64,000 nucleotides of DNA. Source: Myxococcota bacterium. Its GTDB lineage: Bacteria > Myxococcota_A > UBA9160 > UBA6930. The stretch spans positions 17,825 to 81,824 of the forward strand of contig JANQOX010000026.1 in assembly GCA_028285625.1 (NCBI GenBank). The letters run 5' to 3'. Below the pieces are notes generated by a model. The model did not search any database, was not told the DNA's origin, and saw only the letters and a list, made by a program, of their open reading frames with translations. The position numbers and the translations under genes were made by a program. This document shows, piece after piece, positions 16,857 through 62,355 of this stretch. How positions within the stretch are numbered: position 1 is the stretch's first letter; each line of letters starts with the position of its first letter.

Positions 16857-17456
16857 ATGTGGAGCTCGAGCCGTGCGGCGACGCACAGGGCACTCGCCGC
16901 AGCGCTGGTGCTGGGGATCTGGGGAGTCGGCGCATCGGCGGGGGCAGCCGGCCTGGTGGCCCGCCTCGACCCCGCTCGCAGCAGCCTGGGCGGCGCCCCG
17001 CTGTCCGGCCGCATCCTGCTGGAGGGCCCGGCCGCGCTGCCCGTCCCCGCGCCGAGCGCCTTCGACGTCGTGGGCCTCGCGCTACGCGGCGCAGGCCTCG
17101 CCATCGCAACCGACCCCGACTCCGCGTCGCCGGGCCTGGGCGTGCTGCGCCCGGACGCGAGCTTCGAGATTCCCTTCTTGTTCACGCGGGTCACGCCTGC
17201 CGGCGCGAGCCCATTCGACCAGACCCTGGTCGACGTGATCGGGACGTTCGCGCCGTGCCCCGAGGGCCGCTGCATCGAGACGCAGTTCGAGGTCGACACG
17301 CTGGGCTCGGGCGTGGTGCTCGTGAGCCTGCTCGCGGTCGTGCCCGAACCGACACCTCCCATCCTGCTCGCCCTGGTGGTGGCGTCCCTCGCGATCGGCA
17401 CCCTGCGCCGGCGCAACGGCCCACGAACCGCACGTCTGCGGAGGACGCGCCGATGA
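16857..17456 (+). CDS. PEP-CTERM-anchored hypothetical protein
   Basis: ORF 16743..17456 trimmed to ATG 16857, which follows GGAGG (16843-16847). Signal peptide MWSSSRAATHRALAAALVLGIWGVGASAGA. C-terminal VPEPTPPILLALVVASLAIGTLRRR. High GC3. Confidence 0.72.
   Translation: MWSSSRAATHRALAAALVLGIWGVGASAGAAGLVARLDPARSSLGGAPLSGRILLEGPAALPVPAPSAFDVVGLALRGAGLAIATDPDSASPGLGVLRPDASFEIPFLFTRVTPAGASPFDQTLVDVIGTFAPCPEGRCIETQFEVDTLGSGVVLVSLLAVVPEPTPPILLALVVASLAIGTLRRRNGPRTARLRRTRR
17340..17456 (+). other. PEP-CTERM-type sorting tail
   Basis: VPEP followed by a hydrophobic helix and an Arg cluster (RRRNGPRTARLRRTRR). Confidence 0.7.
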
Positions 17457-23422: not shown

Positions 23423-25051
23423 TTGTCGAACGTGCAACGCCCCGCGCCCGCGCTCTTGGTGGCGGTCGCGCTGGTCCTGCTCTCGATCGCGGCGCTCGTC
23501 CACCTGGACACGAGGCGTTACGCAGACCCCGACCTCTTCGTGACGCTCTACACCGGGCGCGAGATCGTCGCGACGGGAGAGCCGCCGCGGGTGGAGAGCC
23601 ACAGCTTCACCGCGGCGGGCGGACCCTGGCGGGACTACGAGTGGGTCTCGCGCCTCGTGTTCTACCGGGCCCACGAGTCCCAGGGTGCTGCGGGGCTCGT
23701 GGCGTTGCGCGCCGCCGTCGCGGTGGGCCTGTTCGCCGTGGCCGGACTCCACGCCCTGCGACTGGGCAGCGCCGCGGCCTTTGCGGCCGGTGTCGTATTC
23801 CTGTCGCTCTTCTTGCGCGAGTTGCTGCTCTTTCGTCCGCGCATCGCGACGTTTCTCGGGCTCGCCTGCGTGATGCTCCTGCTCGACGTGGGCCGGAGCC
23901 GTCGGGCCGCGCTGTTCGGCATTCCGCCACTCGTCGCGGTGTGGGTGAATCTGCATGCAGGCGTGATCGTGGGGATCGCGGGCATCGCCTGCCTCTTCGG
24001 CGAGAGCGTCGTTCGCGCCGTCTCGGATCGCTTCGCCGACGCGCTCCCGGGGTGGACGCGCGACCTGCTCGACGGGCCGACCGCCCCCATGGCCGCGTCG
24101 GCCGCACTCCTGGTCGCGTCCTTCCTGGCCACCGGCGCCAACCCGTACGGGTTCGAGCAGTGGACGGCGGTCGTGCACTCCTTCACGTCTGCAGGGACTG
24201 GGGGCAGCATCTCCGAATGGGTGCCGCTTGCGCGGGGTGGCTGGCGCGAGGCCATCTTGCCGAGCCTGCTGATCGCCACCGTGCTCGCCTCGCTCTGGAT
24301 CGGGCGCAAGCGAATCCCCCTGGGCGAGGCCGTCTTCGCGCTGGTGCTGTGCGTGGCATCGATCGCGGTGGTGCGGTTCGTGGCGCTGCTGGCCGTGGTA
24401 GGCGTCTTTCCGTTCATGCGCGCGGTGGCGACCGTGGCGCCCGGCCTGGCGCAGCGCCTGGGGCGCAGCGGGCAGGCCGTCGCCTGGACCGGGGCCGCCG
24501 GCGCAGCCCTGGTCTTCGCGCTGGTGCAGCGGCCCGTTCATCTGGACGTCCGCATGTTCCCCTCGCTCACACCCGTGGAGCCCGTGGCATTCCTGCAAGC
24601 CAATGACATCAGCGGCAACGTGCTCAACGAGTACGACTGGGGCGGGTACCTCGCGTGGGCGATGCCCGAGTCGCGCATCTTCGTGGACGGCCGCTACGAC
24701 ACGGCCTACCCGCCGGAGATCTACGAGGACTGGAGCCACTTCGTGACGGCGACCTACGACTATCCGTCGCTGCCCGACCGCTACGGAGCCGACGTGGTCC
24801 TGCTGCGCCGCATCCACGTGATCAACGCCATCCTCGATCAGGACCCGCGCTGGGTGCCGGTGTACCGCGACCCGCACTCCGCCATCTGGCTGCGCCGCAG
24901 CGAGGCCAACGCGAAGCACCTGGCGCGCTTCGAAGCCGGCACGCTTCGCGTCCCGGAGCTCTCGGACCGGGACTTCCTGCTCGGGCGGACGCCGCCCAGG
25001 CCGAGCGGCGGCGAGGCACGCGACCCCTCTCCGAGCCCGCCGCAGAGCTAG
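23423..25051 (+). CDS. multi-pass membrane protein, possible GT-C-type glycosyltransferase
   Basis: Tracked ORF is 23357..25051. Likely starts are TTG 23423 or GTG 23432, after AAGGGAGA. About 10-12 TM helices, then a soluble tail ...NEYDWGGYLAWAMPESRIFVDGRYDTAYPPEIYEDW... The family assignment is tentative. Confidence 0.6.
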   Translation: MSNVQRPAPALLVAVALVLLSIAALVHLDTRRYADPDLFVTLYTGREIVATGEPPRVESHSFTAAGGPWRDYEWVSRLVFYRAHESQGAAGLVALRAAVAVGLFAVAGLHALRLGSAAAFAAGVVFLSLFLRELLLFRPRIATFLGLACVMLLLDVGRSRRAALFGIPPLVAVWVNLHAGVIVGIAGIACLFGESVVRAVSDRFADALPGWTRDLLDGPTAPMAASAALLVASFLATGANPYGFEQWTAVVHSFTSAGTGGSISEWVPLARGGWREAILPSLLIATVLASLWIGRKRIPLGEAVFALVLCVASIAVVRFVALLAVVGVFPFMRAVATVAPGLAQRLGRSGQAVAWTGAAGAALVFALVQRPVHLDVRMFPSLTPVEPVAFLQANDISGNVLNEYDWGGYLAWAMPESRIFVDGRYDTAYPPEIYEDWSHFVTATYDYPSLPDRYGADVVLLRRIHVINAILDQDPRWVPVYRDPHSAIWLRRSEANAKHLARFEAGTLRVPELSDRDFLLGRTPPRPSGGEARDPSPSPPQS

Positions 25052-25060
25052 GCTCTCGCC

Positions 25061-28000
25061 GTGGCCAGCCCGCCCTCCGAGCCCACCCCGCTGCCCGCAC
25101 GTCACGGCCGCACCGTACAGGCGGCCGTCCTGTTCGCCGACGTGCTCGGCTTCGGCGAGCTCGTCCGCGAACTCGGGACCGAGACCGCGTACCTGGTGCT
25201 CACCCGCTGCCTCCGTCTGCTCGATGGCATCGCGCGCAAGCACGGGGGCTCGGTCGACAAGTACCAGGGCGACAAGCTGCTCGCCGTCTTCGGCTATCCG
25301 GTGCCGGTGGAGCAGGCGTCGCGTGCCGCCGTGTCGGCGGCCCTCGAGATGCGCGAGCGCGTCGATGCCTACAACGCCGAACCGGACGTCCCGCTGCCGC
25401 TCGGGGTGCACATCGGCGTAAACACCGGCCCGATGGTGGGAGGCGACATCCACGGCCCCGTGGTCCGTGAGTTCCATGTGCTCGGCGACGCCGTGAACAC
25501 CGCGGCACGCATCAACGGCAAGGCCGCGCCGGGCCAGGTGCTGGTGGGCCCGCTCACCCATGAGGAGACGCGAGCCGACTTTGCGCACCGCGCGATCGCG
25601 CCACTTCGCCTGAAGGGCAAGGAAGCCCCGGTGCCGGCCTTCGAGGTGATTGCGGCGCGCGACCGTGCAACCGGAGCCCAACTCGGATTCGACACGCACG
25701 TGTTCGCGGAACGGGTGGGACGCGACGCGGAGCTCGAAGCGCTGTCGGGCGCGCTCGACGCATTGGGGTCGGGGCGCGGCGGGCTCACGACGATTCGCGG
25801 CGAAGAGGGCAGCGGCAAGTCGCGCCTGCTGCTCGAGGTGGCACGGCACCCGGCGCTCGAAGCGGTGGCGGTCTGGCAGGCCCGGGCGGGCCCGGCCATG
25901 GACCCGCTGCCCGAGGCCGGTCTGACGGAGACCGACCCGAACCAGCCCCTGCTGCTGGTGGTCGAGGACGCCCATCGCCTCGACACGCAGGGTCGCGCGT
26001 CGCTGGCACGGACCCTCACGCACGCCTCGAGCGACGCGCCGCGTGCCGTGCGCGTGGTGCTCACCCTGCGCGACGACGAGCCCGGGGCCGCCGAGATCGC
26101 CGCGCTCGCAGCCGAGGTGCCCGAAGCGCGCCGCCACGAGATCACGCTCGGCCCCCTCGCGGATGCCGAAGCGCGCGCGCTCGCCCATGCCTCCGCGCCG
26201 GGCGATGACCTCGACCCGGAGACCCTGGCCCTCGTCCTCGAACGCGGCGTCGGCAATCCGGGTCGGATCCTGATGGCGAGCTTCCTGGCACCGTCGCTGC
26301 GCTCCGAGCGTGCCCACGACGCCGGCCGCGAGCGCAGCGCCGAGGCCGAGCGGCGCCGCGCCTCGGTGCTCTTCGCCGACCTCTCGGGCTTCACGGCCAT
26401 GACCGAGCGCATCGGCGCCGAGCGCGCGTACCCGGTGGTGGCCGCAGCCCTCGATCTGCTCGACCAGGTGGCACGTGAGCATGGCGGAACGGTCGACCAC
26501 TACCTGGGCGACTGCGTCATGGCGCTCTTCGGCGTGCCCGTCGCGCTCGAAGATGCGCCGCGCGCCGCGCTGAACGCCGCCCTCGACATGCGCATCCGCC
26601 TGGCGGCACTGAACGAGCACCATGGAGCCGATCAGCAGCTCGAGCTGCACTGCGGAGTCGCCACCGGGCTGGGAATCGCGGGCGACGTGAGCGGGCCCAT
26701 GATCCGTGAGTTCGCCGTCATGGGCGAGCACGTGGACCTCGCCGACGCCATCACGCACGCGGCGGCCACGGGCGAGATCCACGCGGATCAGGAGACCCGC
26801 CTCGCGACGGAGTCCGTCTTCGAGTTCGGGCCCGAACGCCCGCTGCCGGACGACGCTCTGGCCACGAGCTTCGAACTGCTCTCGACGGCGCCTCGCCTGC
26901 ACCGGGCACGCATCGGCGCCGAACGGCGCGTGTTCTCGGACCTGGTGGGACGCGACGAAGAGATGTCGGCACTGCGCAGCGCGGTGGGGCGCGCTGCAGC
27001 CGGGACCGGAGGTGTCGCCTCGCTCGTCGCCGACGCCGGCATCGGCAAGTCGCGGCTGCTGGCCGAGCTTCGCGGCACGACCGAAGCGGAGGGCGTGACC
27101 TGGCTCGAAGGCCGTGCGCTGTCCACGGGCCGAAACCTCTCGTTCCATCCCATCGCCGATCTGCTGCGTGCGGCCGCCGGCGTGGACGACGACGACGGCC
27201 CGCCGGAGGCCCGGGCGAAGCTCGACGCGGCCATCGTGGGCATCATGGGCGAAGAAGGCGAAGACCTGCTGCCGCTGCTCGCCGGGTTCATGGGCCTGCC
27301 CATGCACCCGGGAGAAGAAGAGCAGCTCGCCGCCATGCAGAAGCGCAGTGCGGCCTCGGGCGACCCGCTCGAGTGGGTGATCCGCGCCGGACTGACGCGG
27401 CTGCTGCGCGAGGCGAGCCTCGCCCAGCCGATGGTCATCGTGATGGAGGACGTGCACTGGGCCGACCTCTCCACCATCGAGCTGCTCGAGCCGCTTCTCC
27501 GCCTCACCGCCGACTGCCCGATCCTGTTCGTGAACGCGGCGCGGCCGGGCTACCCCGACACCGCGGAACGCCTACGCACCTTCGCCCAGGAGCAGCTCGC
27601 CGACCGGCACACCGCCGTCCGGCTCGAGCCCCTCGACGATGGCGCGGCACGCGCGCTGGTACGCAACCTGTTCCGCGGCGGTGACGTGCCCCACCGGACG
27701 CGCGCCATGATCGAGGAGAAGGCGCAGGGCAACCCGTTCTACATCGAAGAGGTGGTGCGAGCGCTCCTCGATGCCGGGGCCCTGGTGCTGCGGGAGGGCG
27801 CCTTCCACGCCACCGAGCGACTGGACGCCTTCGAGATGCCCGGGACCGTGCAAGAGGCCGTGATGGCGCGCGTCGACCGACTGCCCCTCGCCCCCCGCCA
27901 GGTGCTGCAGGCGGCATCGGTGGTGGGCGGGACCTTCCACCAGGAGGTCCTCGAAGACCTGGTCGACGACCCGGCCGGGCTCGAGTCGTGCCTGGGCGAG

Positions 28001-29725
28001 CTCGAGGCGGGCGAGTTCATCGAGCCGACCGACCGCACGGCGGGCATCGAGTTCGGCTTCGTCCACCCGTTGATCCAGGAAGTGACCTACGACGCGCTGC
28101 TCCAGGCCCGCCGGGTCACCCTGCATCAGCAGGTCGCGCGCGCCACCGAAGCGCGGCTGGACGAGGGCGTCCCCGGATACCACGCGATGCTCGCCTACCA
28201 CTTCAGCATGGGTCGCGACACGGCCCAGGCCGAGAAGTACCTGCTGCTCGCCGGCGACGAAGCCGCCCGCAACGCGGCATCCAGTGAAGCCCTGCGCTTC
28301 TTCCAGCAGGCGGCCGAACTGTTCCGCGAATTGCACGGCGAGGGCGGCGACCCGCGTGTGCGAGCAAGAATCGAGCGCAACCTGGGACTCGCCCTGTTCA
28401 ACCGCGGCCAGGAGCCCGACTCGGCCGTCCACTTCGACGAGGCGCTCACCCTGCTCGGGGTGCGCGTGCCGAAGAACGCACTCGCGCTGAACGGTCGCTT
28501 CCTGCGCGACGTGCTCGCCGTGGTGCCACCGCTGTTTCGCAACCGGACGCGGAAGCGCCCGCCGGCCAGCGACGACGACCGCGAGCTCATCGACATCAGC
28601 TTCTTCCGAGCGCTGTCCCAGAGCACCGCCGAACCCACGCGCTTCGTGTTCGACTCGATGTCCACGCTGCGACGGGTGGCGCGCTTCGACCCGCGGAGCA
28701 TTCCGGAGGCGGGAGGCAAGTATGCCGGCGCCGCCGCCATCTTCAGCTACTCCGGCCTCTCGTTCGCCGTGTCCCAGCGCTTCCTGGCGGCGGCGGGCCG
28801 CATGATCCAACGCGAGGATGCCGCGGACTACCTCTACTACCGCGTGATCCGGTTCGTCCACCACTTCCTGTCCGGCGACTGGGACGACGCCCATGAGATC
28901 CCCGAAGAGATCGTGCGGCGCAGCCAGCGCGACGGGCGGCTCTGGGAGGTCACGACCTACCTGGGGCTGCTCGGCGAGAAGCGGTTGCGGCAGGGCGACT
29001 TCGAGGGCGTGCACGGCTGCACCCAGTGGATCCAGGAGATCGCGGACACCTACGAATACGACGTCGCCCGCTACAACGCGCTGGGCATGCCGGTGATCCT
29101 GGCCCTCGAGCAGCGGCGACTCGACGACGCGGGCGAGGCCGCGCGCCGCTACCAGGAGGAGAGCCCCCAGGAGCTGCTGCACCTGCTGGCCCTCGGCTGG
29201 CGCGCTGAGGCCGCGGCGCTGCGCGGCGAGCTGGAGTCGGCCGAGTCGGCGCTCGGCCGGGCCGACCAGATCCTCGAGGCGGTGGGCCGGGCCATCCCCT
29301 TCCACCGCGGCAGCGTCGATCATGCGCGGCTGCTCTGCGACGTCTGCCGCATCGAGTCCGAGGGCGCCCGCATCGGCTTGCGAAGGCGGGCCCGCAAGAG
29401 CGCCCGCGCCGCGAGCCGAATCGCCCCCAAGATCGCCTACCGCATGCCCCAGGTGCTGCGCCTCGAGGGGCGCTTGGACTGGCTCGCCGGCCGCCGCCAG
29501 CGGGCCCTGCGCAGCTACGCCGGCAGCCTCGAAGCGGCGGATCGGATGGGGCTCGCGCCCGAGCGCGCACGCACCGCCCACGAGCTGTCGCTGCGCCTCT
29601 CCGAGGCCGGGGGCAAGGTCGCCGGGCTCGATGCCCAGGGCCTGCGCGACGATGCGCAGGAACGCTACGAAACCCTCGGTCTTGCGTGGGATCTCGACCA
29701 GTTGCAGGCCGGGAGAAACCCCTGA
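25061..29725 (+). CDS. tandem class III nucleotidyl cyclase / P-loop NTPase (STAND-like) protein with C-terminal helical-repeat region
   Basis: 1554 aa; GTG start lies 9 nt after the upstream stop. CHD1 is about 25112-25645 (LFADVLGFGEL, QGDKLLAVFG, GDAVNTAARI). Walker A1 is GEEGSGKS (25799-25822) and Walker B1 is LLLVVEDAH. CHD2 is about 26354-26890 (LFADLSGFTAM, LGDCVMALFG, GEHVDLADAI). Walker A2 is ADAGIGKS (27029-27052) and Walker B2 is MVIVMEDVHWAD. About 900 aa of helical/TPR-like sequence follows. Confidence 0.88.
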   Translation: MASPPSEPTPLPARHGRTVQAAVLFADVLGFGELVRELGTETAYLVLTRCLRLLDGIARKHGGSVDKYQGDKLLAVFGYPVPVEQASRAAVSAALEMRERVDAYNAEPDVPLPLGVHIGVNTGPMVGGDIHGPVVREFHVLGDAVNTAARINGKAAPGQVLVGPLTHEETRADFAHRAIAPLRLKGKEAPVPAFEVIAARDRATGAQLGFDTHVFAERVGRDAELEALSGALDALGSGRGGLTTIRGEEGSGKSRLLLEVARHPALEAVAVWQARAGPAMDPLPEAGLTETDPNQPLLLVVEDAHRLDTQGRASLARTLTHASSDAPRAVRVVLTLRDDEPGAAEIAALAAEVPEARRHEITLGPLADAEARALAHASAPGDDLDPETLALVLERGVGNPGRILMASFLAPSLRSERAHDAGRERSAEAERRRASVLFADLSGFTAMTERIGAERAYPVVAAALDLLDQVAREHGGTVDHYLGDCVMALFGVPVALEDAPRAALNAALDMRIRLAALNEHHGADQQLELHCGVATGLGIAGDVSGPMIREFAVMGEHVDLADAITHAAATGEIHADQETRLATESVFEFGPERPLPDDALATSFELLSTAPRLHRARIGAERRVFSDLVGRDEEMSALRSAVGRAAAGTGGVASLVADAGIGKSRLLAELRGTTEAEGVTWLEGRALSTGRNLSFHPIADLLRAAAGVDDDDGPPEARAKLDAAIVGIMGEEGEDLLPLLAGFMGLPMHPGEEEQLAAMQKRSAASGDPLEWVIRAGLTRLLREASLAQPMVIVMEDVHWADLSTIELLEPLLRLTADCPILFVNAARPGYPDTAERLRTFAQEQLADRHTAVRLEPLDDGAARALVRNLFRGGDVPHRTRAMIEEKAQGNPFYIEEVVRALLDAGALVLREGAFHATERLDAFEMPGTVQEAVMARVDRLPLAPRQVLQAASVVGGTFHQEVLEDLVDDPAGLESCLGELEAGEFIEPTDRTAGIEFGFVHPLIQEVTYDALLQARRVTLHQQVARATEARLDEGVPGYHAMLAYHFSMGRDTAQAEKYLLLAGDEAARNAASSEALRFFQQAAELFRELHGEGGDPRVRARIERNLGLALFNRGQEPDSAVHFDEALTLLGVRVPKNALALNGRFLRDVLAVVPPLFRNRTRKRPPASDDDRELIDISFFRALSQSTAEPTRFVFDSMSTLRRVARFDPRSIPEAGGKYAGAAAIFSYSGLSFAVSQRFLAAAGRMIQREDAADYLYYRVIRFVHHFLSGDWDDAHEIPEEIVRRSQRDGRLWEVTTYLGLLGEKRLRQGDFEGVHGCTQWIQEIADTYEYDVARYNALGMPVILALEQRRLDDAGEAARRYQEESPQELLHLLALGWRAEAAALRGELESAESALGRADQILEAVGRAIPFHRGSVDHARLLCDVCRIESEGARIGLRRRARKSARAASRIAPKIAYRMPQVLRLEGRLDWLAGRRQRALRSYAGSLEAADRMGLAPERARTAHELSLRLSEAGGKVAGLDAQGLRDDAQERYETLGLAWDLDQLQAGRNP

Positions 29726-29950: not shown

Positions 29951-32900
29951 ATGCTCAAGCTCCCCCTCGGTCGTACCGCCTGGTTCGGTCCCGTCCTGCT
30001 CACCGCCTCGATCCTGCTTGCCGCGCCCGAGGCCGTCCGCGCAATGGGCTGCAACATCGAGCCCTTCCCCGACAAGCCGCAGCGCGCGCAGTCGAGCCTG
30101 GGCGAGGCCGGCAACGGCCTGGTCGACCGCCGCATGGCGGGGCCTGGCGACTGGGTGACGCTGATCGCCGACCTCGGCTGCAAGCCCACCACGCCGAAGT
30201 TCCGGACCACCGACACCTATCGGCTCGAAGTGCTCGCCCAGGGCGGAAGCTTCGTCGAGGTGCCCGTCGACCAGTCCACCGTGCAGCTGCACGAGTGCCC
30301 CACGGGCCAGTCCGAGAACTGTGGGCGCGCGCGCTTCCCGCTGCCGGACCCGGTGGCGGCCCTCGGCATCGAGGTCGCCGGACCGGCGCGCCTGGCCGTC
30401 GATCGCGGCACCACCCGCATCTACAGCGTGGGCCAGCTGGCGGCCCCCGGCACGCAGTGCGACGCCGACAATGCGCCCGCCGACGTGGAGACCGGCGGCT
30501 TCGTCTTCCTGCCGCCCATGAACGTGGTTCAAGAGGGTGCCAACGCCGGCTGGCGACTCGCACTCGACTGGCAGGGGGACATCTGGACGCCCCAGGACAT
30601 GACGGCGCTCGTGGACGACCCGGGTGCGCCCCAGGCGGTCCTCACCGAGAGCCAGTCGCTGAGCATCGACCTCATCCCGACGGACCTTCCGCCGGGTGTC
30701 CCCGCCGGAACCCCGCTCGACTTCGTCGAGATCACCAACGATCGCGGTCAGGTGATTCCGCCCCTCGAAGAGGTCGTCGTGATCGACCCCAGCGCTCCGC
30801 GCAAGGCAATCCTCGGGTCGACCGACGTGCTGCGCTCGGTGCTCGAGCTTCGCCAGCAGGTGACGGTCGAGGACGCCAGCGGCACCTCGATCTCCGTGGA
30901 CTATCCCGTGCCGTTCGCGGCGCTGCGCGTGGGGGCGGGGCCCATCATCGCCCCGGATGCGGTCTCGATCACCAAGATCGGGACGACCGATCTCACCGCA
31001 TTCCGCACCAACGACGGCAACTACGTGGCCGGCGTCGAAGAGACCCCGGCGTTCAACAATGGCGATGGCGACCTCACCGATGCCCTGGCGCAGTACCAGA
31101 GCCTCGAAGTGGGCGCGACGACGCTGGCCACCGGACAGGCCCTGGCGCAGATCTCCGGCTCGCCCCGAACCCCCGCCATCGCGGTGGAGCAGACGCCCGA
31201 CAGCGACATCTTCGCGTTCGTCCAGGGCGGCGTCGCTTCTCGCGAGCAGCTCACGCCGGCGGGCAGCCTCGTCCGCGATGCCGTGCGCGTCTACGACGGC
31301 GCGACCGAACTCACGCCGAACCCACCGCTCTTCTCGATCGTCCCCGAACGGCAGGTGGAGGGCGGCCTGCTGTCCATCGCGGGCGGGACCGTGTTCTCGA
31401 TCGTGAGCGAGCCCGACCTGCTGCCGGACGAACTCGGCCGTGTCACCGACGACACGGCGGCATCGGGCGCGCCGCGCGTCGACGCTGCCGGGGAGCGCGT
31501 GGCGCACGAGAGCCAGTCGGCCGGCGGAGTGCGTCAGATCGTGTTGTCCGACCGCGAGGGCCTGGTTCCGGCCGAGGCCATGAGCCCGGTCGGTGGACCG
31601 CCCGGCGCCTTCGACGCCAAGAACCCTGCGCTGGCCGCGGCGAGCGGCGATACGGTGGCCTTCCAGTCGCGCTCGACCTACGGCCTGCCCATCGGCGGTG
31701 GTAGCGGCGGCGGGGGCACCGTGGTCGTCGAGCAGGGCGTGAACTTCCGCGGTCGCATCAACGCAGACCCGCCCTTCTTCTTTCCCGACGCCTCACTGCT
31801 CTTCGACCTGCTTCCCGGCGAGGACACGCCCGGCCTGGGCGACTGGTCGGGCTGCACGCCCGAGCTGATCGGGCCGTTTCCCACCGGCATCGAGCTGATC
31901 TTCCTCGACGACCCGGGCCTGCAGCAGCAGGGCACCTTCATGGCCTACCTGAGCGCGCCCTACCCGGGCGTGTTCGTGGACGACTGCCACTTCGAGATCC
32001 AGGTGGTCGGCATCTACCAGGCGACCGAGACGCCGCCGGTTCCCGGCACCGTGCTCTCCCTGGCCGGCGACGTCGTGTTCCAGGACCTCGACCCCGCCCT
32101 GCCCGGCACGGTCACGAACCCGCGCTTCGAGAGCACGCTGATCGTCGGCGACCCGGTTCCGGCCGGCCATGAACTCTCGGGCTTCTTCGCACTGCTCGCC
32201 GAGCAGGCGGGCCCGGCCGTGGCCGAGCAGGTGTTCCTCGCCGTCTCGGGCACGCCCGGCGTTTCACTGCTCTCGGCCAATGCAGCCGGTGACCCGGGCG
32301 ATGGCGACTCGGGCAACGCCGAGCTCTCGTCGGATGGCGGCTTCGCCGCATACGACACGGCCAGCACCAACCTGGTCGCCTCGGCGGCCGCACGGTCGGT
32401 CGTGGTCGTACCGCTCGACCCCGACGGCAACGGCGTCCCGGCCGAGCCCGGCACCCTGGCCCCGATCCTCGCGAGCGTCGATGCGGCGGGGGCGCCCCTC
32501 GGTGGCACCAGCTCACGGCCGCGACTCTCGCGAGACGGCCTTTCGCTGGTGTTCCTCACCGACGCGCCTGTGGATGCGAGCGACACGAACGCCTCCACCG
32601 ACGCGGTCTTCGTCGACCTCGACCCCGACGGCAACGGCAGCATCGAGCCCGGCTCGTTCGTCGGCGTGCGCGTCAGCACCGACGCCCTTGGCCAGAACGT
32701 GGCCGGGACCGTCTTCGACGCCGACCTCGGTGGCGATGGCACGCTGGTGGCCTTCTCGGGCGACGGGGCCTACGTGCCGGACGACGGCAACGGGGCCTCG
32801 GACGTCTACCTGCTCGATCTGGCGGACGGAACGCTCGAGCGCATCAGCGTGGATCTCGGGCTCGCCGAGACGAACGGCGCCTCGGACCAGGCGTCGGTCT

Positions 32901-34996
32901 CGGACGATCAGCAGGCGGTGGTCTTCCGCAGCGACGGCGCCCTGCTACCGGGCGCGACGGGCACGAACGTCTACCGCTTCCTGGTCAAGAAGGGTGGCCT
33001 CGAACTCGTGAGCCTCGGCGCCACCGCAGCCGGCCGGCCCGATGCCAATGCCGACGGCAACGTCGTCGTGTTCGACTCGGCGGACCCGCTGGTGCCCGGC
33101 GACGCGGGCGCGCCCGAGGACGTCTTCGCCCTCACCAAGGTGGACGACGGCACGATCACGAGCCTGAACGACTTCCCGGGCGAGGGACTCCCCGACGACG
33201 ACCTCGGCGACCCGCTGCTCGAGGCGTTCGACACGACGTCGGCGGCCGCGCTCGCCGGCTCGCGCATCGCGGCCAACTCGGCGCAGACCGCACCGGGCGT
33301 GGCTCCCGTGCGAGGGCTCGCGCTCGTCTCGGTGCCCGAGGACCTTCAGGGCGGACTCGACCTGAACGATGCGACCCGCACGCGGCTCCCCGAGTCGGCG
33401 ACGAGCCCCGAGGCCGACGCCGACGACGACGTGCTCTTCCTCTACCGGGCCCGCGACGCGGTGGGCATTGCCGACGCCAAGGAGAACCTGGGTGTCGCCG
33501 TGGCCGGCGAGCAGTACGACCTCTCGTCCCGCGTCGCGTGCTTCGCAATCGACGAGGCGGATCAGAGCACCGAACTGAACGGCAACGCCAGCGACGAGGC
33601 CGTGCTCGGCTGGATCACCACCGACGGCGCCTTCGGCACCGAGATCGTCCACAACGCGGGCTTCGCCGTGCAGGACGTGGCGGCGGTGGACCTCGCGAGC
33701 GGGCCGGCCTGCCTGGCGCTGGTGGACGAGGCGCGCCAGCCGGCGTCGAACCCGGCGCTGCCGTGCATCGGCGGGGGTAGCTTCTGCGACCTCGACGGCG
33801 ACGGTACGGCGACCACCGTGCCCGTGGTCCTCGATACCACGAGCGGCGCCATCGCCAACGTGGGTCTCCCCGCCACCGGCTTCGAGCTGGGGCCCGAGGG
33901 CCATGCCCTCTTCCTGGTGCCCGAGGCCGTGCACGGCGTCGACGCCAACGGCAACGGCGTGCTCGGGCAGACCGTGCCGTGGTTCCTCGACCTCGATACC
34001 GCGCTGGCCGGACCCGCCGGTCCGGGCCCGGGCGTGAGCGACCTGGCCGTTCCGCTCGGCCCTGCCTGGGCCGAGTGCAGCGAGCCCGCGTGCGAAGCGT
34101 TCGGCCTGGCGAAGGTCGGGGCCCTGGTGATCTCCTACGCCGGGCGCGAGTCGGACAACCGCTTCGGACCGTTCTGCCGCGCGCTCTCGGGCATCTGCGA
34201 CGCCAATGCCGACGGGCGCGAGACCAAGGTGATCTGGACCGCCTCGATCGACGACGGCGTCGTCTCGCGCGTGGTCGCCCAGCGCTTCGACGCCAACCAG
34301 TCGGCGCCGATCCACCCGGTGCAGGTGGCGGGCCGCACGGTCTTCCACCGCGAACTCACCGAGTGCGCAGCGGCCGAGCTTCGGTGCCAGGCCGAGACGG
34401 GCTTCGCGACGCCCGAACCCAGCCCCGAAGCGATCGTCATCGAACCGGGTTCGTGCGAATCGGCAGTCGACGTCGTGCCACCGTTCGGCGAGCTCGGCTG
34501 CATCGAGCCCTTGCTGTTCCTGGACTCGGACCTCGACGGAGACGGCGTGAAGGCCCTGGTCGACAACTCGCCGTTCTCGAACACGGCGCAGCGCGACGGG
34601 GACAACGACGGCTACGGCGACGGCTTCGACCTGGAGCCGGGCAGCCTGGCGCCGGTCTTCCTGTTCGACGGCGACTTCGACGGCGATGGCGACGTCGACC
34701 AGGACGACCTCGATGCGGTGCAGGCCGAGCGGGGGCGTACCGCCCGCGACCTGGGCTTCGGTGGGCTGGCCGTGGCCGGCTTCGACGCCTTCGACCTCAA
34801 CCTGAACGGCGTCATCGACATCGGAGACGTCCTGGCCGTGATCAACCGCTGCACCCTGCCGGGCTGCGAGGTGATCGACCCGGCCCCGCCCGCGGCCCCT
34901 GCGGGAGGCTCGGGCGCTCGCTGTGGCCTGCTGGGCCTCGAGCCCCTGGTGCTTCTCGCACCCTGGCTCGCCCGCCGCTGGCGGCGCCGGGACTAG
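29951..34996 (+). CDS. giant secreted surface protein: PD40-like beta-propeller repeats, TSP type-3 repeat, dockerin-like EF-hand pair, Cys-TM-Arg C-terminal tail
   Basis: 1681 aa. Signal peptide MLKLPLGRTAWFGPVLLTASILLAAPEAVRA. Repeats of the form S.DG..VAF.S.A..LV.GD.N...DV(F/Y) lie at about 32330-33130. TSP3-like DSDLDGDGVKALVDNSPFSNTAQRDGDNDGYGDGFD is at 34523-34630. Dockerin-like DFDGDGDVDQDDLDAV and DLNLNGVIDIGDVLAVINR lie at about 34665-34850. The tail is CGLLGLEPLVLLAPWLARRWRRRD. Confidence 0.85.
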   Translation: MLKLPLGRTAWFGPVLLTASILLAAPEAVRAMGCNIEPFPDKPQRAQSSLGEAGNGLVDRRMAGPGDWVTLIADLGCKPTTPKFRTTDTYRLEVLAQGGSFVEVPVDQSTVQLHECPTGQSENCGRARFPLPDPVAALGIEVAGPARLAVDRGTTRIYSVGQLAAPGTQCDADNAPADVETGGFVFLPPMNVVQEGANAGWRLALDWQGDIWTPQDMTALVDDPGAPQAVLTESQSLSIDLIPTDLPPGVPAGTPLDFVEITNDRGQVIPPLEEVVVIDPSAPRKAILGSTDVLRSVLELRQQVTVEDASGTSISVDYPVPFAALRVGAGPIIAPDAVSITKIGTTDLTAFRTNDGNYVAGVEETPAFNNGDGDLTDALAQYQSLEVGATTLATGQALAQISGSPRTPAIAVEQTPDSDIFAFVQGGVASREQLTPAGSLVRDAVRVYDGATELTPNPPLFSIVPERQVEGGLLSIAGGTVFSIVSEPDLLPDELGRVTDDTAASGAPRVDAAGERVAHESQSAGGVRQIVLSDREGLVPAEAMSPVGGPPGAFDAKNPALAAASGDTVAFQSRSTYGLPIGGGSGGGGTVVVEQGVNFRGRINADPPFFFPDASLLFDLLPGEDTPGLGDWSGCTPELIGPFPTGIELIFLDDPGLQQQGTFMAYLSAPYPGVFVDDCHFEIQVVGIYQATETPPVPGTVLSLAGDVVFQDLDPALPGTVTNPRFESTLIVGDPVPAGHELSGFFALLAEQAGPAVAEQVFLAVSGTPGVSLLSANAAGDPGDGDSGNAELSSDGGFAAYDTASTNLVASAAARSVVVVPLDPDGNGVPAEPGTLAPILASVDAAGAPLGGTSSRPRLSRDGLSLVFLTDAPVDASDTNASTDAVFVDLDPDGNGSIEPGSFVGVRVSTDALGQNVAGTVFDADLGGDGTLVAFSGDGAYVPDDGNGASDVYLLDLADGTLERISVDLGLAETNGASDQASVSDDQQAVVFRSDGALLPGATGTNVYRFLVKKGGLELVSLGATAAGRPDANADGNVVVFDSADPLVPGDAGAPEDVFALTKVDDGTITSLNDFPGEGLPDDDLGDPLLEAFDTTSAAALAGSRIAANSAQTAPGVAPVRGLALVSVPEDLQGGLDLNDATRTRLPESATSPEADADDDVLFLYRARDAVGIADAKENLGVAVAGEQYDLSSRVACFAIDEADQSTELNGNASDEAVLGWITTDGAFGTEIVHNAGFAVQDVAAVDLASGPACLALVDEARQPASNPALPCIGGGSFCDLDGDGTATTVPVVLDTTSGAIANVGLPATGFELGPEGHALFLVPEAVHGVDANGNGVLGQTVPWFLDLDTALAGPAGPGPGVSDLAVPLGPAWAECSEPACEAFGLAKVGALVISYAGRESDNRFGPFCRALSGICDANADGRETKVIWTASIDDGVVSRVVAQRFDANQSAPIHPVQVAGRTVFHRELTECAAAELRCQAETGFATPEPSPEAIVIEPGSCESAVDVVPPFGELGCIEPLLFLDSDLDGDGVKALVDNSPFSNTAQRDGDNDGYGDGFDLEPGSLAPVFLFDGDFDGDGDVDQDDLDAVQAERGRTARDLGFGGLAVAGFDAFDLNLNGVIDIGDVLAVINRCTLPGCEVIDPAPPAAPAGGSGARCGLLGLEPLVLLAPWLARRWRRRD
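34922..34996 (+). other. C-terminal sorting-signal-like tail (Cys, hydrophobic helix, Arg cluster)
   Basis: CGLLGLEPLVLLAPWLARRWRRRD then stop. It is near-identical over its first 10 residues to the tail at 62254..62355. Confidence 0.7.
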
Positions 34997-35016
34997 CCCC
35001 AGGGGAACTCCTGCTG

Positions 35017-35054
35017 CAGCGGCCGGGACCTTTGTCCCGGCCGCTGGGCGTTTT
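35017..35054 (+). terminator. Rho-independent terminator
   Basis: Perfect 12-bp stem: CAGCGGCCGGGA (35017-35028) pairs with TCCCGGCCGCTG (35035-35046). The loop is CCTTTG. GGCGTTTTCC follows, with the T-run at 35051-35054. It lies 21 nt after the stop of the 5-kb gene. Confidence 0.85.
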
Positions 35055-35092
35055 CCTGTCACCTGCGCCCCCGGGATGGCCACTTACTGGCC

Positions 35093-35731
35093 ATGGCACC
35101 CCTCCGCGCAGTGTCCGTTCGCGCTTTCCTGTGGGCCCTTCTGGTCGCGCTGCCGCTGCTGGCGGTCGGCCCGGCAGGGGCCGTCTCGATCGAGCTCGTC
35201 GCTCAGGGCGCCAACCCGAACAACCTGAAGCCGGGCGACGTGCTGCTCGTGGATGTCCGTGTGAGCGGCCTCGGGAGCTTCACGGCCCCCACCGTCGGCG
35301 CCTTCGACCTCACCGCGACCTTCGGTGATCCGATTCTCACCGTCGACTCGCTCACCTACGGTACGGGGCTCTCGGCTCCGGGCTTCCCGAGCCAGCCGCT
35401 CCCGCCGGTGCTGGGTACGGGCCTGGCTCAGGGCGCCGAGCTGGTGGCCGCCGACCCCGGCGCCTGCGGCGCAGTCGAGTCCGTGCAGGCCGACTCCTTC
35501 TCGCTGTTCACGCTGTCGTTCACCGCGGGCGCCGTGGGCAGCACCGAGGTGGCACTGATCGACGCGCCACCCACGAATGGCCTCTTCCTGTTCGATTGCT
35601 CGTTCACACCGATCCCCCTCGAGGTCGAACCGGCGAGCCTGTCGGTGGTCGTCCGCGAGGTGGCCGAGCCGGCCTCGCTGCTCGGCGCCCTGGCCCTGCT
35701 CTTCGTGCGCCGGCGGCGCGCGAACCCCTAG
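35093..35731 (+). CDS. cohesin-like domain protein with PEP-CTERM-type tail
   Basis: 212 aa. Signal peptide MAPLRAVSVRAFLWALLVALPLLAVGPAGA. VSIELVAQGANPNNLKPGDVLLVDVRVSGLGSFTAPTVGAFDLTATFGDPILTV resembles the first strands of cohesin-type beta-sandwiches. The tail is VAEPASLLGALALLFVRRRRANP. Confidence 0.6.
   Translation: MAPLRAVSVRAFLWALLVALPLLAVGPAGAVSIELVAQGANPNNLKPGDVLLVDVRVSGLGSFTAPTVGAFDLTATFGDPILTVDSLTYGTGLSAPGFPSQPLPPVLGTGLAQGAELVAADPGACGAVESVQADSFSLFTLSFTAGAVGSTEVALIDAPPTNGLFLFDCSFTPIPLEVEPASLSVVVREVAEPASLLGALALLFVRRRRANP
35660..35731 (+). other. PEP-CTERM-type sorting tail (AEP variant)
   Basis: VAEPASLLGALALLFVRRRR. Confidence 0.7.
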
Positions 35732-35763: not shown

Positions 35764-37314
35764 ATGTCCTGGTCTCGGGCCCTGGCGGCCGTGGGCGCCT
35801 CGGCGGTGCTGTTCGCGCTCGCGTACCCGCCCGTGTCGCTGCGCCCGCTCGCGTTCGTGGCCCTCGCGCCGTTGTTCGTCGCGTTGCGCACCGGCGGCGC
35901 CTGGCGCGCCGTGCTGCTTGCGGGGATCTGGGCGCAACTCACGTCCTACCTCGTGGGCGATGCGCTTCCCGCGTCGGTCGAGCGCTACTTCGCGCAGCCG
36001 CCGCTCGCGAGCTTCGGGTTCGCCTCGCTCGTCTTCCTGGTCACCGCCAGCATCTACTTCCTGCCGCTCCCGCTGGTCTACCGCCGGCTGGCGCGACGGG
36101 GGCCGGGACCCTGGCTGCCCCTGGGCGTCGCGGCCGCGTGGGCGGCGATCGAACTGGCACGGGCTCGGCTGGCGACGGGGACCGCCTTCTGGGGCGCCCC
36201 CTGGGCGCTGTTCGGCTACTCCCAGGTGGGCTTCGACCCGCTGGTGCAGGTGGCCTCGCTCGGGGGCACCTACCTCGTGAGCTTCGTGCTGGTGGCGCCC
36301 TCGGCCGCGCTCGCCGAGTGGTGGCTGGCGCGGGGCACCGCGGGGGCAAGGCCCGCGCGCACGGCCATCTGGATCTCGTTCGCACCGGCGCTACTCGCGC
36401 TCGTCTACGGCGGTGTCGTACTGCAGCGTGCGGAGCTTCCCGATCCGTCCACCGAGGTCTCGGTGGGGGTGGTGCAGGCCGACGTCCAACTCAACGTACA
36501 ATGGCGGCCCGAGAAGACGGGGCGCAATCTCGACGCCTACCTCGACCAGAGTGCCGAGCTGCTGGCGGGCGGGGACGTCGACGTGGTGGTCTGGTCGGAG
36601 TCGTCCATGAGCTTCCACCTGGACCGCTCACCGGCATTCCTGCGTTCGATTGCGCGCACGCTCTCGCGCGGCGACGCCGAGTTGCTGGCCGGAGGCCCAA
36701 GCGGCGTGGATGGCGAGCCGCCGCGCTACCACAACAGCGTATTCGCCGTATCTCCCGTCGGTGAGATCACCGGGCGCTACGACAAGCAGCGCCTGGTTCC
36801 CTTCGGCGAGTTCGTCCCGCTCCAGCAGCTCGACATCATGCGGAGGCGCTTTGCAGGCACACGCTCGTTCTCGCCGGGCGGCGAGGCGGTGCTGCTGCCC
36901 ACGCGAGCGGGGCCCGCAGGCGTGCTCGTGTGCAACGAGGCCATGCTTCCGAGCATGGCGGGCCTGCGTGCGCGCGCGGGCGCCACCTGGCTGGTCAGCC
37001 CGTCGAACGACTCGTGGATCGCACGCGAGCGATGGGCGCGCATGACCTTCGATCTGGTGTCCATGCGCGCCGTCGAACAGCGGCGCTATCTGGTGCGGGC
37101 GTCGAGCTCCGGTCCCTCCGGCGTGGTCGACCCCTACGGGCGCGTGCTCGCCCGCACGCGCGCGGCCAGCGAAGCCCTGGTCTCGGGGCCGGTACGGCCG
37201 ATGCACGCCCTCTCGGTCTACGGGCGGGTCGGCGACCTGTTCGCGCTGCTTTGCGCGGCCATGGTGGCCATTGCCCTGGTCGCGGTGGGGCGCGCGCCGA
37301 AGCGCGAGACCTAG
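35764..37314 (+). CDS. lnt: apolipoprotein N-acyltransferase
   Basis: ORF 35596..37314 trimmed to ATG 35764. N-terminal TM bundle followed by a CN-hydrolase domain with the E-K-C triad contexts VVWSESS, YDKQRLVPFGEF and VLVCNEAM. Confidence 0.92.
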   Translation: MSWSRALAAVGASAVLFALAYPPVSLRPLAFVALAPLFVALRTGGAWRAVLLAGIWAQLTSYLVGDALPASVERYFAQPPLASFGFASLVFLVTASIYFLPLPLVYRRLARRGPGPWLPLGVAAAWAAIELARARLATGTAFWGAPWALFGYSQVGFDPLVQVASLGGTYLVSFVLVAPSAALAEWWLARGTAGARPARTAIWISFAPALLALVYGGVVLQRAELPDPSTEVSVGVVQADVQLNVQWRPEKTGRNLDAYLDQSAELLAGGDVDVVVWSESSMSFHLDRSPAFLRSIARTLSRGDAELLAGGPSGVDGEPPRYHNSVFAVSPVGEITGRYDKQRLVPFGEFVPLQQLDIMRRRFAGTRSFSPGGEAVLLPTRAGPAGVLVCNEAMLPSMAGLRARAGATWLVSPSNDSWIARERWARMTFDLVSMRAVEQRRYLVRASSSGPSGVVDPYGRVLARTRAASEALVSGPVRPMHALSVYGRVGDLFALLCAAMVAIALVAVGRAPKRET

Positions 37315-62257: not shown

Positions 62258-62355
62258 CCGTCGGCGCGCGGCGATCCGTGGCTTCGCCACGCCCGCCGGC
62301 CTCGCAGCGCCCAGACACCGATCGGCACCAGCGCCTCGATGCCCAACAGCCCGCA
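62254..62355 (-). other. C-terminal sorting-signal-like tail, second copy of the CGLLG[LI]E motif
   Basis: CGLLGIEALVPIGVWALRGRRAWRSHGSPRADG then stop, against CGLLGLEPLVLLAPWLARRWRRRD at 34922..34996. Confidence 0.7.

Follow-up and report, generated by a model that had tools for sequence, protein, structure and literature searches.

C-terminal sorting signals decide which proteins a bacterium displays on its surface, and the discovery of every new signal has to date brought a new processing enzyme to light (sortase, exosortase/archaeosortase, rhombosortase and myxosortase). Among the tripartite signals, Haft has linked those containing a Cys to CPBP proteases, and all four known signals of this type are paired with such proteases (bioRxiv 10.1101/2023.06.07.544157). 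In the pathway proposed for the four, a separate enzyme lipidates the Cys, and then a CPBP/Rce1-type glutamic intramembrane protease cuts distal to it. For MYXO-CTERM, cleavage by MrtX and dependence on the Cys have been demonstrated experimentally, with export to the surface via the type II secretion system (mBio PMC11980579). MYXO-CTERM has no charged or Pro residues in its helix and often contains a second Cys; JDVT-CTERM has Asp-Pro nine residues past the Cys and occurs about once per genome, beside the protease MrtJ; Synerg-CTERM is confined to Synergistota; and CGP-CTERM is archaeal, with Gly-Pro after the Cys (bioRxiv 10.1101/2023.06.07.544157). Here, we analyze a C-terminal tail with the core CGLLGxE that is shared by two secreted proteins encoded in a 64,000-nt stretch of DNA from a Myxococcota bacterium (assembly GCA_028285625.1, contig JANQOX010000026.1, positions 17,825 to 81,824; referred to as the window, with all positions counted from its first letter). 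The tail had been noticed in the window in an original prediction, which took it for an unclassified sorting signal. Judging from the sequences collected here, it is a widespread, strongly conserved and unmodelled signal that occurs in uncultured Myxococcota and in a small number of other bacteria and is used alongside PEP-CTERM.

Results

Two unrelated secreted proteins share a C-terminal tail

The two carriers and their tails, located by translation and a motif scan, are as follows.

29951..34996, + strand: giant secreted protein of 1681 aa, signal-peptide-like N-terminus, bears the tail
34922..34996, + strand: CGLLGLE tail of the giant protein, from the Cys codon to the stop (CGLLGLEPLVLLAPWLARRWRRRD, then stop)
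62254..63996, - strand: CRTAC1/ASPIC-UnbV FG-GAP protein of 580 aa, signal peptide, assigned with Pfam, bears the tail
62254..62355, - strand: CGLLGIE tail of the CRTAC1-like protein, from the Cys codon to the stop

On translation, the giant open reading frame (ORF; 29951-34996, +) ends in GGSGARCGLLGLEPLVLLAPWLARRWRRRD (in a longer form, PAPPAAPAGGSGARCGLLGLEPLVLLAPWLARRWRRRD), the Cys codon of its tail lying at 34922 and the stop codon at 34994-34996. The CRTAC1-like ORF (62254-63996, -) carries the tail CGLLGIEALVPIGVWALRGRRAWR, which starts with the Cys codon at 62355, and its translated end is NEREKCGLLGIEALVPIGVWALRGRRAWRSHGSPRADG. The giant protein has no Pfam domain over the cut-off, and the CRTAC1-like protein matches FG-GAP_3 (6e-43) and UnbV_ASPIC (4.5e-9); outside the tail, the two proteins are unrelated. 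When the tails are aligned without gaps from the Cys (position 0 throughout), eight of the ten leading residues are identical, as are W+15, R+18 and R+21. Synonymous differences are found in three of the eight identical codons (tgt/tgc, ggc/ggg, ctg/ttg). Thus, the translations agree with the original prediction on the positions of both tails as well as on the identity of eight of the first ten residues in spite of DNA that differs at synonymous positions. The DNA of the two tails is about 80% identical over the first 30 nt and divergent beyond, so that they do not stem from a recent DNA duplication.

Across the six frames of the 64-kb window, the pattern CG[LIVM][LIVM]G[LIVM]E matches only at these two sites, which lie 24 and 33 residues ahead of stops in long ORFs with a strong coding signal. 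Dinucleotide-preserving shuffles (n=200) produced a mean of 0.005 matches per window and no case with two or more, and about 1e-4 matches would be expected within protein C-termini from the amino-acid composition of the 47 called proteins. The shared tail is not due to chance.

The tail recurs across cargo families and genomes

To look beyond the window, a profile of 26 tails (A3), consisting of the two window tails and 24 tails of CRTAC1 homologues, was searched exhaustively against 1.84 billion cluster-representative proteins (E<=1e-3). The search yielded 98 representatives, among them the giant protein itself (database entry P0167), the tail of which scores 37.0 bits, and in 90 of the 98 the match lies at most 46 residues from the C-terminus. 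Seven of the eight non-terminal matches were inspected, and in these the tail is followed either by a new signal peptide, which appears to reflect read-through of tandem genes, or by low-complexity sequence. Internal matches were also considered as a different protein architecture (P0121, P0142, P0149, P0160, P0178, P0183, P0201, P0205 and P0216), which was rejected because they represent read-through or low-complexity sequence.

A CG..G.E tail followed by a hydrophobic stretch and RRRR is present in 30 of the best 120 CRTAC1-like homologues. Other CRTAC1 relatives at similar overall identity end in PEP-like tails, in GC-type tails or in no tail at all, so that the tail behaves as a swappable anchor module.

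Genome contigs were additionally scanned with the DNA pattern TGCGGSCTSCTSGGSVTSGAG. Among the matches listed for GTDB genomes there are eight true tails, all of them terminal; the remaining listed matches are mostly chance internal occurrences of CGLLG[ILVM]E in Actinomycetota and comparable genomes of high GC, without a hydrophobic and Arg tail. The sources of the true tails are four Myxococcota metagenome-assembled genomes (MAGs; including the 5.0-Mb chromosome OZ245817.1), 'Planctomycetota bacterium SMAG_U3121', in which tails are found on three different contigs of the one MAG, SMAG_U10803, a MAG also labelled Planctomycetota, and a 'Spirochaetales' MAG, all taxon labels being used as deposited. 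About 25 further tails were obtained from JGI metagenome contigs, and one CRTAC1 client is present in TARA ocean assemblies. Altogether, the named carriers are mostly Myxococcota MAGs, with further true tails in MAGs that bear the labels Planctomycetota or Spirochaetales.

The cargo is diverse: the 46 carrier proteins analyzed cover at least 35 Pfam families, all of extracytoplasmic types, including PA14, GDSL lipase, GH5 cellulase, SASA esterase, subtilase, FG-GAP, TSP3, PD40, beta-helix and Ig-like domains. A signal-peptide-like N-terminus is present in 20 of the 24 full-length carriers, and the label for carriers at both NCBI and JGI is 'hypothetical protein'. The profile search, the CRTAC1 homologues and the metagenomes hence all contain further proteins with the motif, a point on which the original prediction had hinged, and we consider it very likely that the tail is a genuine sorting or anchoring signal.

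To describe the tail, 156 non-redundant tails were gathered with the regular expression CG..G.E, which by itself fixes C0, G1, G4 and E6. The same four residues are also invariant in the alignments of 26 tails and of 46 proteins, the members of which were drawn from regex-selected tails or profile hits. Among the 156 tails, the linker from -4 to -1 is rich in Pro, Gly, Ser and Ala, and the core is conserved at L+2 (91%), L+3 (82%), I/L/V+5 (89%) and L+8 (78%). Position +7 is Ala in 35% and Pro in 27% of the tails, +9 is Leu, Pro or Ala, +10 is Leu, Val or Pro, +11 is Leu in 63%, and Arg occurs at +18 to +20 in about 80%. A Pro is found somewhere between +7 and +15 in 134 tails (86%), at variable positions, whereas a second Cys within six residues (2/156) and another acidic residue in the hydrophobic stretch (1/156) are rare. 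The distance from the Cys to the first basic pair or Arg cluster is 15-18 residues in 90% of the tails, and that to the C-terminus is 19-35 residues in most; the usual length of a whole tail is 22-33 residues. In consensus, the tail is thus a module of 20-35 residues at the very C-terminus that opens with a Pro/Gly/Ser linker, runs through the core C-G-L-L-G-[ILV]-E-[AP]-L into a brief hydrophobic stretch with Pro, and closes with an Arg cluster, and the tripartite layout claimed earlier (motif, hydrophobic helix, Arg cluster) holds across the tails.

A variant that is one residue shorter between the Gly residues, CG[LI]G.EL, was observed in P0075, P0099, P0106, P0119 and L159:4388-9193, and is borne by orthologues and paralogues of CGLLGxE carriers. 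The orthologue of the giant protein in locus L159 (1601 aa) ends with this variant, CGIGIEL...RRRRRR.

Models of known signals do not reach their cut-offs on the tail

Using hmmscan at E<=10, 41 tail-bearing queries (the window tails alone and in their full-length proteins, the 26 members of A3 and five top database hits) were compared with NCBIfam release 20.0 (June 2026) and Pfam. No CTERM model of either collection reaches its cut-off on a CGLLGxE tail. PEP-CTERM proteins served as positive controls, one of them encoded in the window:

16908..17456, + strand: classical PEP-CTERM protein (VVPEPTPP...RRR), ends in VVPEPTPPILLALVVASLAIGTLRRR, TIGR02595 20.0 bits at a cut-off of 16

This control and a second one (L022:175-1074, 18.0 bits) both pass TIGR02595, and therefore an existing model for CGLLGxE would have shown up. 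Synerg-CTERM comes closest, with sub-threshold matches to two of the 26 alignment members (best E 7.5e-4) and to two of the five top tails (<=14.4 bits; cut-off 22.5). The MYXO-CTERM model TIGR03901.2 (cut-off 20 bits) matches one of the 26 tails at E 0.53 and none of the five top tails, and none of the scanned CGLLGxE tails is matched by JDVT-CTERM (NF033191, cut-off 27 bits), CGP-CTERM (TIGR04288) or the PEP-CTERM models TIGR02595 (>=16 bits) and PF07589 (>=20.7 bits). A degenerate PEP-CTERM, suggested by the resemblance of G-[IL]-E-P to PEP, is ruled out by these controls together with a profile comparison: in hhalign, the CGLLGxE profile shows no similarity to 11 PEP tails taken from the loci of the CGLLGxE genes (probability 4%). 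The tail is very probably distinct from PEP-CTERM.

The relation to MYXO-CTERM is illuminated by the Myxococcota chromosome OZ245817.1 (locus L022), which encodes two CRTAC1 paralogues, P0010 and P0077, with the tails AGCGGGGAGMAIALLARVGTRRR and GCGLLGVEAWPALACWLARRRRR, respectively. The former is of a GCGGGG type and the latter is CGLLGVE, so that two forms are present on one chromosome; the GC-type tail of P0010 is likewise undetected by TIGR03901.2.

Full-text searches of the literature, both by the motif and for CTERM signals newly described since 2023, retrieved no description of the tail. The earlier statement that the core is neither VPEP nor the MYXO-CTERM motif therefore stands, since the tails lack a GCGC-type motif and all models, including those for PEP-CTERM and MYXO-CTERM, stay below their cut-offs. 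The designation 'unclassified' is correct insofar as no model covers the tail; however, the signal is not unprecedented, because structurally it falls within Haft's group of Cys-containing, CPBP-linked signals.

CGLLGxE and PEP-CTERM genes stand side by side

Every genome context seen also encodes PEP-CTERM proteins. The protein at 16908-17456 shows that the organism of the window has a second sorting system, and a further PEP-type tail belongs to the gene that directly follows that of the giant protein.

35093..35731, + strand: small secreted cohesin-like protein with a PEP-type tail (VAEPASLLGALALLFVRRRR), assigned by clustering, operon partner of the giant protein
34670..34849, + strand: dockerin-like calcium-loop module of the giant protein (aa 1574-1633, GDFDGDGDVDQDD...DLNLNGVIDIGD), just upstream of the tail

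In BLASTP, the dockerin-like module of the giant protein is 35% identical (E 2e-4) to the Dockerin_1 domain of L043:1488-5363. The latter domain scores 24.0 bits (cut-off 22.9), and its region aligns to aa 1574-1665 of the giant protein, where a weak EF-hand match is also found. The small protein groups with the small proteins of L124, L125, L141 and L142, of which that of L141 matches Cohesin at 32.6 bits (cut-off 24.1) and, only weakly, PEP-CTERM. On its own, the tail VAEPASLLGALALLFVRRRR passes no hidden Markov model (HMM); the protein falls in the cohesin and PEP-CTERM family. Both PEP-type tails that had been reported for the window (VPEP at 17340 and AEP at 35660) are thus accounted for, the first by TIGR02595 and the second by its family.

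A CGLLGxE gene directly followed by a PEP-CTERM gene was found in eight loci, with the following coordinates of the two-gene operon.

Window: 29951-35731
L043: 1488-5893
L124: 254-2033
L125: 21-3852
L138: 1-980
L141: 8500-10277
L142: 2916-4751
L159: 4388-9958

In the seven loci other than the window, and in the read-through protein P0178, a gap of 4-150 nt is followed by a signal-peptide protein of 165-210 aa with a VVPEP tail. The sequences thus point to a recurring operon, represented in the window by 29951-35731, in which a dockerin-like CGLLGxE protein is followed by a small cohesin PEP-CTERM protein. That dockerin/CGLLGxE and cohesin/PEP-CTERM proteins are kept together indicates that the two tail types are not interchangeable, and the operon suggests a complex at the cell surface in which two kinds of anchor are combined. 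PEP-CTERM genes also adjoin the CRTAC1-CGLLGxE genes in L022 and L153. The idea of two sorting systems in one organism, raised in the original prediction, is strengthened by these side-by-side operons and by the hhalign result. Literature searches for the motif strings, for cohesin with dockerin and PEP-CTERM, and for exosortase with Lnt retrieved nothing relevant.

Several further features were observed in and around these operons. Just past the stop of the giant gene there is a perfect 13-bp hairpin (35017-35029/35034-35046) with a 4-nt loop, followed by GGCGTTTT (the whole element spanning 35017-35056); this putative terminator- or attenuator-like element lies between the giant and the cohesin gene. 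Cys-rich secreted proteins of 220-260 aa without a family match flank the cassette at L124:2030-2815, L135:1324-2004, L141:6265-6954 and L142:3-1369. CGLLGxE proteins with acidic double-disulfide repeats (D.ADPDC..WSDNE) always have a protein of about 220 aa with a zinc ribbon and a NucS-like (PD-(D/E)xK) domain directly downstream (L097:675-1070, L128:8370-9038, L147:515-1174 and residues ~960-1170 of P0149).

Genes around the carriers

Sorting enzymes were sought 8-20 kb around the clients, among the polytopic ORFs of about 35 loci plus five CRTAC1 and six Lnt neighbourhoods. Among the called genes of the window that were scanned or Pfam-annotated there is no exosortase, CPBP or rhomboid gene, as had been noted before for exosortase-like and CPBP-protease-like genes, and the five further CRTAC1-client neighbourhoods contain no sorting enzyme. 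The polytopic neighbours found elsewhere are MFS, ABC, AI-2E, acyltransferase_3, ERG4 and PMT_2 proteins and one exosortase with EpsI. This exosortase (L141:2337-3841) scores 141.8 bits with the generic 8TM_EpsH model (cut-off 105.55) and 143 with XrtA (cut-off 208); no Xrt subtype is passed, so that it appears to be of an unclassified subtype. A separate EpsI gene accompanies it, and the two are 3-5 kb away from a cassette of CGLLGxE, cohesin-PEP and Lnt genes.

In the window, the giant gene and its partner belong to a same-strand run of five genes, in the order polytopic protein (23423-25051), cyclase/AAA_16 protein (25061-29725), giant protein (29951-34996), small protein with the PEP-type tail (35093-35731) and Lnt (35764-37314). 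The other three genes of the run are the following.

23423..25051, + strand: uncharacterised polytopic membrane protein of 542 aa, about nine transmembrane segments, first gene of the run
25061..29725, + strand: Guanylate_cyc and AAA_16 protein of 1554 aa, from Pfam annotation, upstream of the giant gene and a neighbour of Lnt in related loci
35764..37314, + strand: apolipoprotein N-acyltransferase Lnt (TIGR00546 245.6 bits, cut-off 132.9), last gene of the run

An Lnt gene follows the CGLLGxE/PEP pair in the window, L125, L141, L142 and L159, and lies ahead of another client in L127. Nevertheless, Lnt as part of the tail machinery was rejected: in the six loci of Lnt homologues, the constant partner of Lnt is the adjacent Guanylate_cyc/AAA_16 gene, and the CGLLGxE and PEP pair is found in only one of them, L159. 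The adjacency probably reflects a preferred insertion site or conserved synteny and not machinery. The arrangement of Lnt (TIGR00546) beside a large Guanylate_cyc and AAA_16 protein is itself shared by seven loci (the window and L157-L162), although the Lnt proteins are only 47-53% identical, and the CGLLGxE/cohesin pair sits between the cyclase and Lnt genes only in the window and L159.

The 542-aa membrane protein shares 26% identity over 549 aa (E 5e-14) with L022:1354-3096, which is encoded directly beside the CRTAC1-CGLLGVE gene. The family of 542-580 aa, with 9-10 transmembrane segments and a C-terminal soluble part, thus occurs beside CGLLGxE genes in two unrelated contexts. The window protein has no match in Pfam, NCBIfam or PDB, and a single-sequence AlphaFold model (predicted local distance difference test, pLDDT, 42.9) was unusable. 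The family is possibly GT-C-like and is a candidate only.

Apart from these genes, the window harbors many lipid-modifying genes (3681-4631, 9373-10962, 19309-20499, 50836-53175 and 55298-56053), the kinds being fatty acid hydroxylase, PLD-type phospholipase/synthase, acyltransferase_3, fatty acid cis/trans isomerase and PlsC-type acyltransferase.

Discussion

On balance, we lean slightly towards the view that the shared tail represents a distinct, unmodelled tripartite class of C-terminal sorting or anchoring signal ('CGLLGxE-CTERM') that would involve lipidation of the Cys and CPBP-type cleavage. The combination of a signal peptide, a C-terminal hydrophobic stretch and an Arg cluster implies an N-out, C-in topology: after Sec export, the tail would hold the protein in the inner membrane, with the Arg cluster in the cytoplasm. 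The Cys would lie where the membrane meets the periplasm, and the Glu would be buried about six residues, or about 1.7 helical turns, further in. The Cys thiol would be lipid-modified, and the CGLLGxE helix would be recognized by a dedicated intramembrane endopeptidase, a polytopic protein whose gene would lie elsewhere in the genome. To judge from MYXO-, JDVT-, Synerg- and CGP-CTERM, a CPBP/Rce1-type glutamic protease would be the most likely enzyme; CPBP-type processing of the tail is nevertheless put forward tentatively, as an analogy that may well fail. Lipidation, cleavage and surface display of the carriers would all follow the precedent of the described signals. The single Cys, the lack of a spacer and the conserved residues within the helix appear to fit recognition by a polytopic intramembrane enzyme. 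More speculatively, when C-G-L-L is followed from the surface into the membrane, it is the mirror image of the lipobox L-x-G-C in an oppositely oriented signal peptide, which would fit an Lgt-type modification as suggested for MYXO-CTERM (PMC11980579).

Two results of the neighbourhood analysis weigh against this class with CPBP-type cleavage. Neither a CPBP protease (sought with Pfam and by the EExxxR/FxxxH/HxxxN triad) nor a rhomboid was found in the window or in about 45 tail-gene loci, and the only sorting enzyme near a tail gene is the exosortase with EpsI in L141, in one of these loci. However, a housekeeping enzyme with many clients would be expected to be encoded away from them, so that its absence nearby is uninformative and not contrary.

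It is unlikely, although worth serious attention, that the tail is instead a non-PEP signal cut by a dedicated exosortase paralogue (a cysteine protease/transpeptidase), as has been proposed for VPLPA-, VPDSG-, IPTL- and VPEID-CTERM. Exosortases must be present in these genomes, since all contexts examined encode PEP-CTERM proteins, and the distance from the Cys to the Arg cluster is about the same as that of the PEP motif in PEP-CTERM. Moreover, the L141 exosortase, with its match to generic 8TM_EpsH only and its EpsI, lies within 3-5 kb of the cassette, and unclassified exosortase subtypes often accompany unclassified signals (Haft). Yet the VVPEP tail of the neighbouring cohesin protein by itself explains this exosortase, which is moreover the only one in about 45 loci. 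In addition, the CGLLGxE profile has no detectable similarity to the co-resident PEP tails, and a single signature Cys is a hallmark of CPBP-linked and not of exosortase signals (bioRxiv 10.1101/2023.06.07.544157).

We also give little credence to a wholly independent sorting system, in which own machinery would read the membrane-embedded Cys...Glu pair. Such a system would be deployed together with PEP-CTERM/exosortase for two-anchor complexes, a lipid-anchored dockerin protein being docked on an exosortase-sorted cohesin protein, and a neighbouring gene may belong to the machinery. The candidates would be the Lnt-type acyltransferase next to the pair and the 542-aa polytopic protein encoded at 23423-25051; if this were true, either could be the lipid transferase that is 'missing' for C-terminal signals of the Cys type.

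That the tail is a lineage-specific MYXO-CTERM of uncultured Myxococcota, handled by an ordinary myxosortase (MrtX/MrtC/MrtP), seems quite improbable to us. The named carriers are mostly from this phylum, for which MYXO-CTERM is reported as universal, with a divergence that calls for lineage-specific models, and the tripartite layout and the invariant Cys are common to both. Against this, TIGR03901.2 barely responds to the tails (1/26 and 0/5, as given above), and the composition differs, with Glu+6 in all collected tails, a helix Pro in 86% and a second Cys in 1%. Furthermore, GCGGGG-type (P0010) and CGLLGVE (P0077) tails coexist on one 5.0-Mb chromosome, and the tail extends to the Planctomycetota-labelled SMAG_U3121 and SMAG_U10803 and to the Spirochaetales-labelled MAG. 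CGLLGxE therefore is probably a distinct class rather than a form of MYXO-CTERM.

There is only a slim likelihood that the tail remains uncleaved and, as a C-terminal transmembrane anchor, simply retains proteins in the inner membrane without a dedicated sorting enzyme. A hydrophobic stretch with an Arg cluster is a generic stop-transfer topology, and no enzyme was found near the clients. However, a plain anchor would not need a C-G-L-L-G-x-E core of fixed spacing across more than 35 unrelated families and several phyla, and about 16 residues from the Cys to the first Arg, with a buried Glu and a helix-breaking Pro, would make a poor passive anchor. Finally, a chance or compositional resemblance of two high-GC C-termini can practically be dismissed: the window does have 71% G+C and an abundance of Leu, Gly, Arg and Ala, but two motif sites, both beside stops, were observed against 0.005 expected per shuffled window, and the chance matches listed for other high-GC genomes are internal and lack the hydrophobic and Arg tail, whereas the true tails are all terminal.

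The tail is common in uncultured soil, sediment and marine Myxococcota, on hydrolases, adhesin-like repeats and giant proteins. Current annotation leaves the carriers 'hypothetical', with no localisation call, so that a model of the tail would at once improve the prediction of surface proteomes and would supply a clean phylogenetic profile for finding the cognate enzyme. The conserved intramembrane Glu and the pairing with PEP-CTERM in dockerin/cohesin operons offer handles on how intramembrane sorting proteases read their substrates, and these operons may show how two anchoring systems cooperate.

Relation to described signals

As far as can be judged from sequence, CGLLGxE shares the general design of the Cys-containing signals and fails a defining feature of each. 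Tripartite sorting domains as a general class (Haft) strictly co-occur with a cognate polytopic processing enzyme; in the 8-20 kb around the CGLLGxE clients, no candidate recurred, the one exosortase aside. It resembles MYXO-CTERM (TIGR03901; MrtX, MrtC, MrtP) in its tripartite structure, with an invariant Cys near the C-terminus, no spacer before the hydrophobic segment and an Arg-rich end, as well as in its many unrelated secreted clients, mostly in Myxococcota. In contrast to MYXO-CTERM, which often has GCGC and lacks charged and Pro residues in the helix, CGLLGxE has a single Cys (a second one in 1%), Glu+6 in every collected tail (required by the regular expression) and a Pro in the helix in 86%. 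It is also shorter (15-18 residues from Cys to Arg), is not detected by the HMM and occurs in Planctomycetota- and Spirochaetales-labelled MAGs too. MYXO-CTERM itself is limited to Myxococcota/Bradymonadales genomes with a gene for a myxosortase (NF040914).

Closest in style is JDVT-CTERM (NF033191; MrtJ), which combines a single invariant Cys and a conserved acidic residue, often with Pro, with a Leu-rich helix and an Arg cluster. However, Asp-Pro is located nine residues past the Cys in JDVT-CTERM, whereas CGLLGxE has Glu at +6 and Pro+7 in only 27%. JDVT-CTERM has about one client per genome, beside a CPBP protease, in Pseudomonadota, whereas CGLLGxE has several clients per genome (two within the 64-kb window, and three contigs in one MAG) and no adjacent protease.

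Synerg-CTERM (TIGR04564; MrtS) is likewise short, starts with a Cys, has a Pro within its Leu-rich helix and shows the best, though sub-threshold, HMM resemblance; yet it has neither the CGLLGxE core nor a conserved Glu, its helix Pro is invariant, it is restricted to Synergistota, and most CGLLGxE tails are not matched by its model. The signature of CGP-CTERM (TIGR04288; MrtA, Thermococcales) also opens with Cys-Gly, but this shortest of the Cys signals is archaeal and has an invariant Gly-Pro after the Cys, whereas CGLLGxE is bacterial and has Leu at +2 in 91%. With PEP-CTERM (TIGR02595, PF07589; exosortase), finally, the tail shares the tripartite structure, a conserved Glu, many clients and an occurrence in Gram-negative environmental bacteria, down to the same genomes and operons; it differs in that it lacks Pro-Glu-Pro, contains an invariant Cys and has a hydrophobic stretch of about 12 residues after the Glu, compared with 15-21 in PEP-CTERM.

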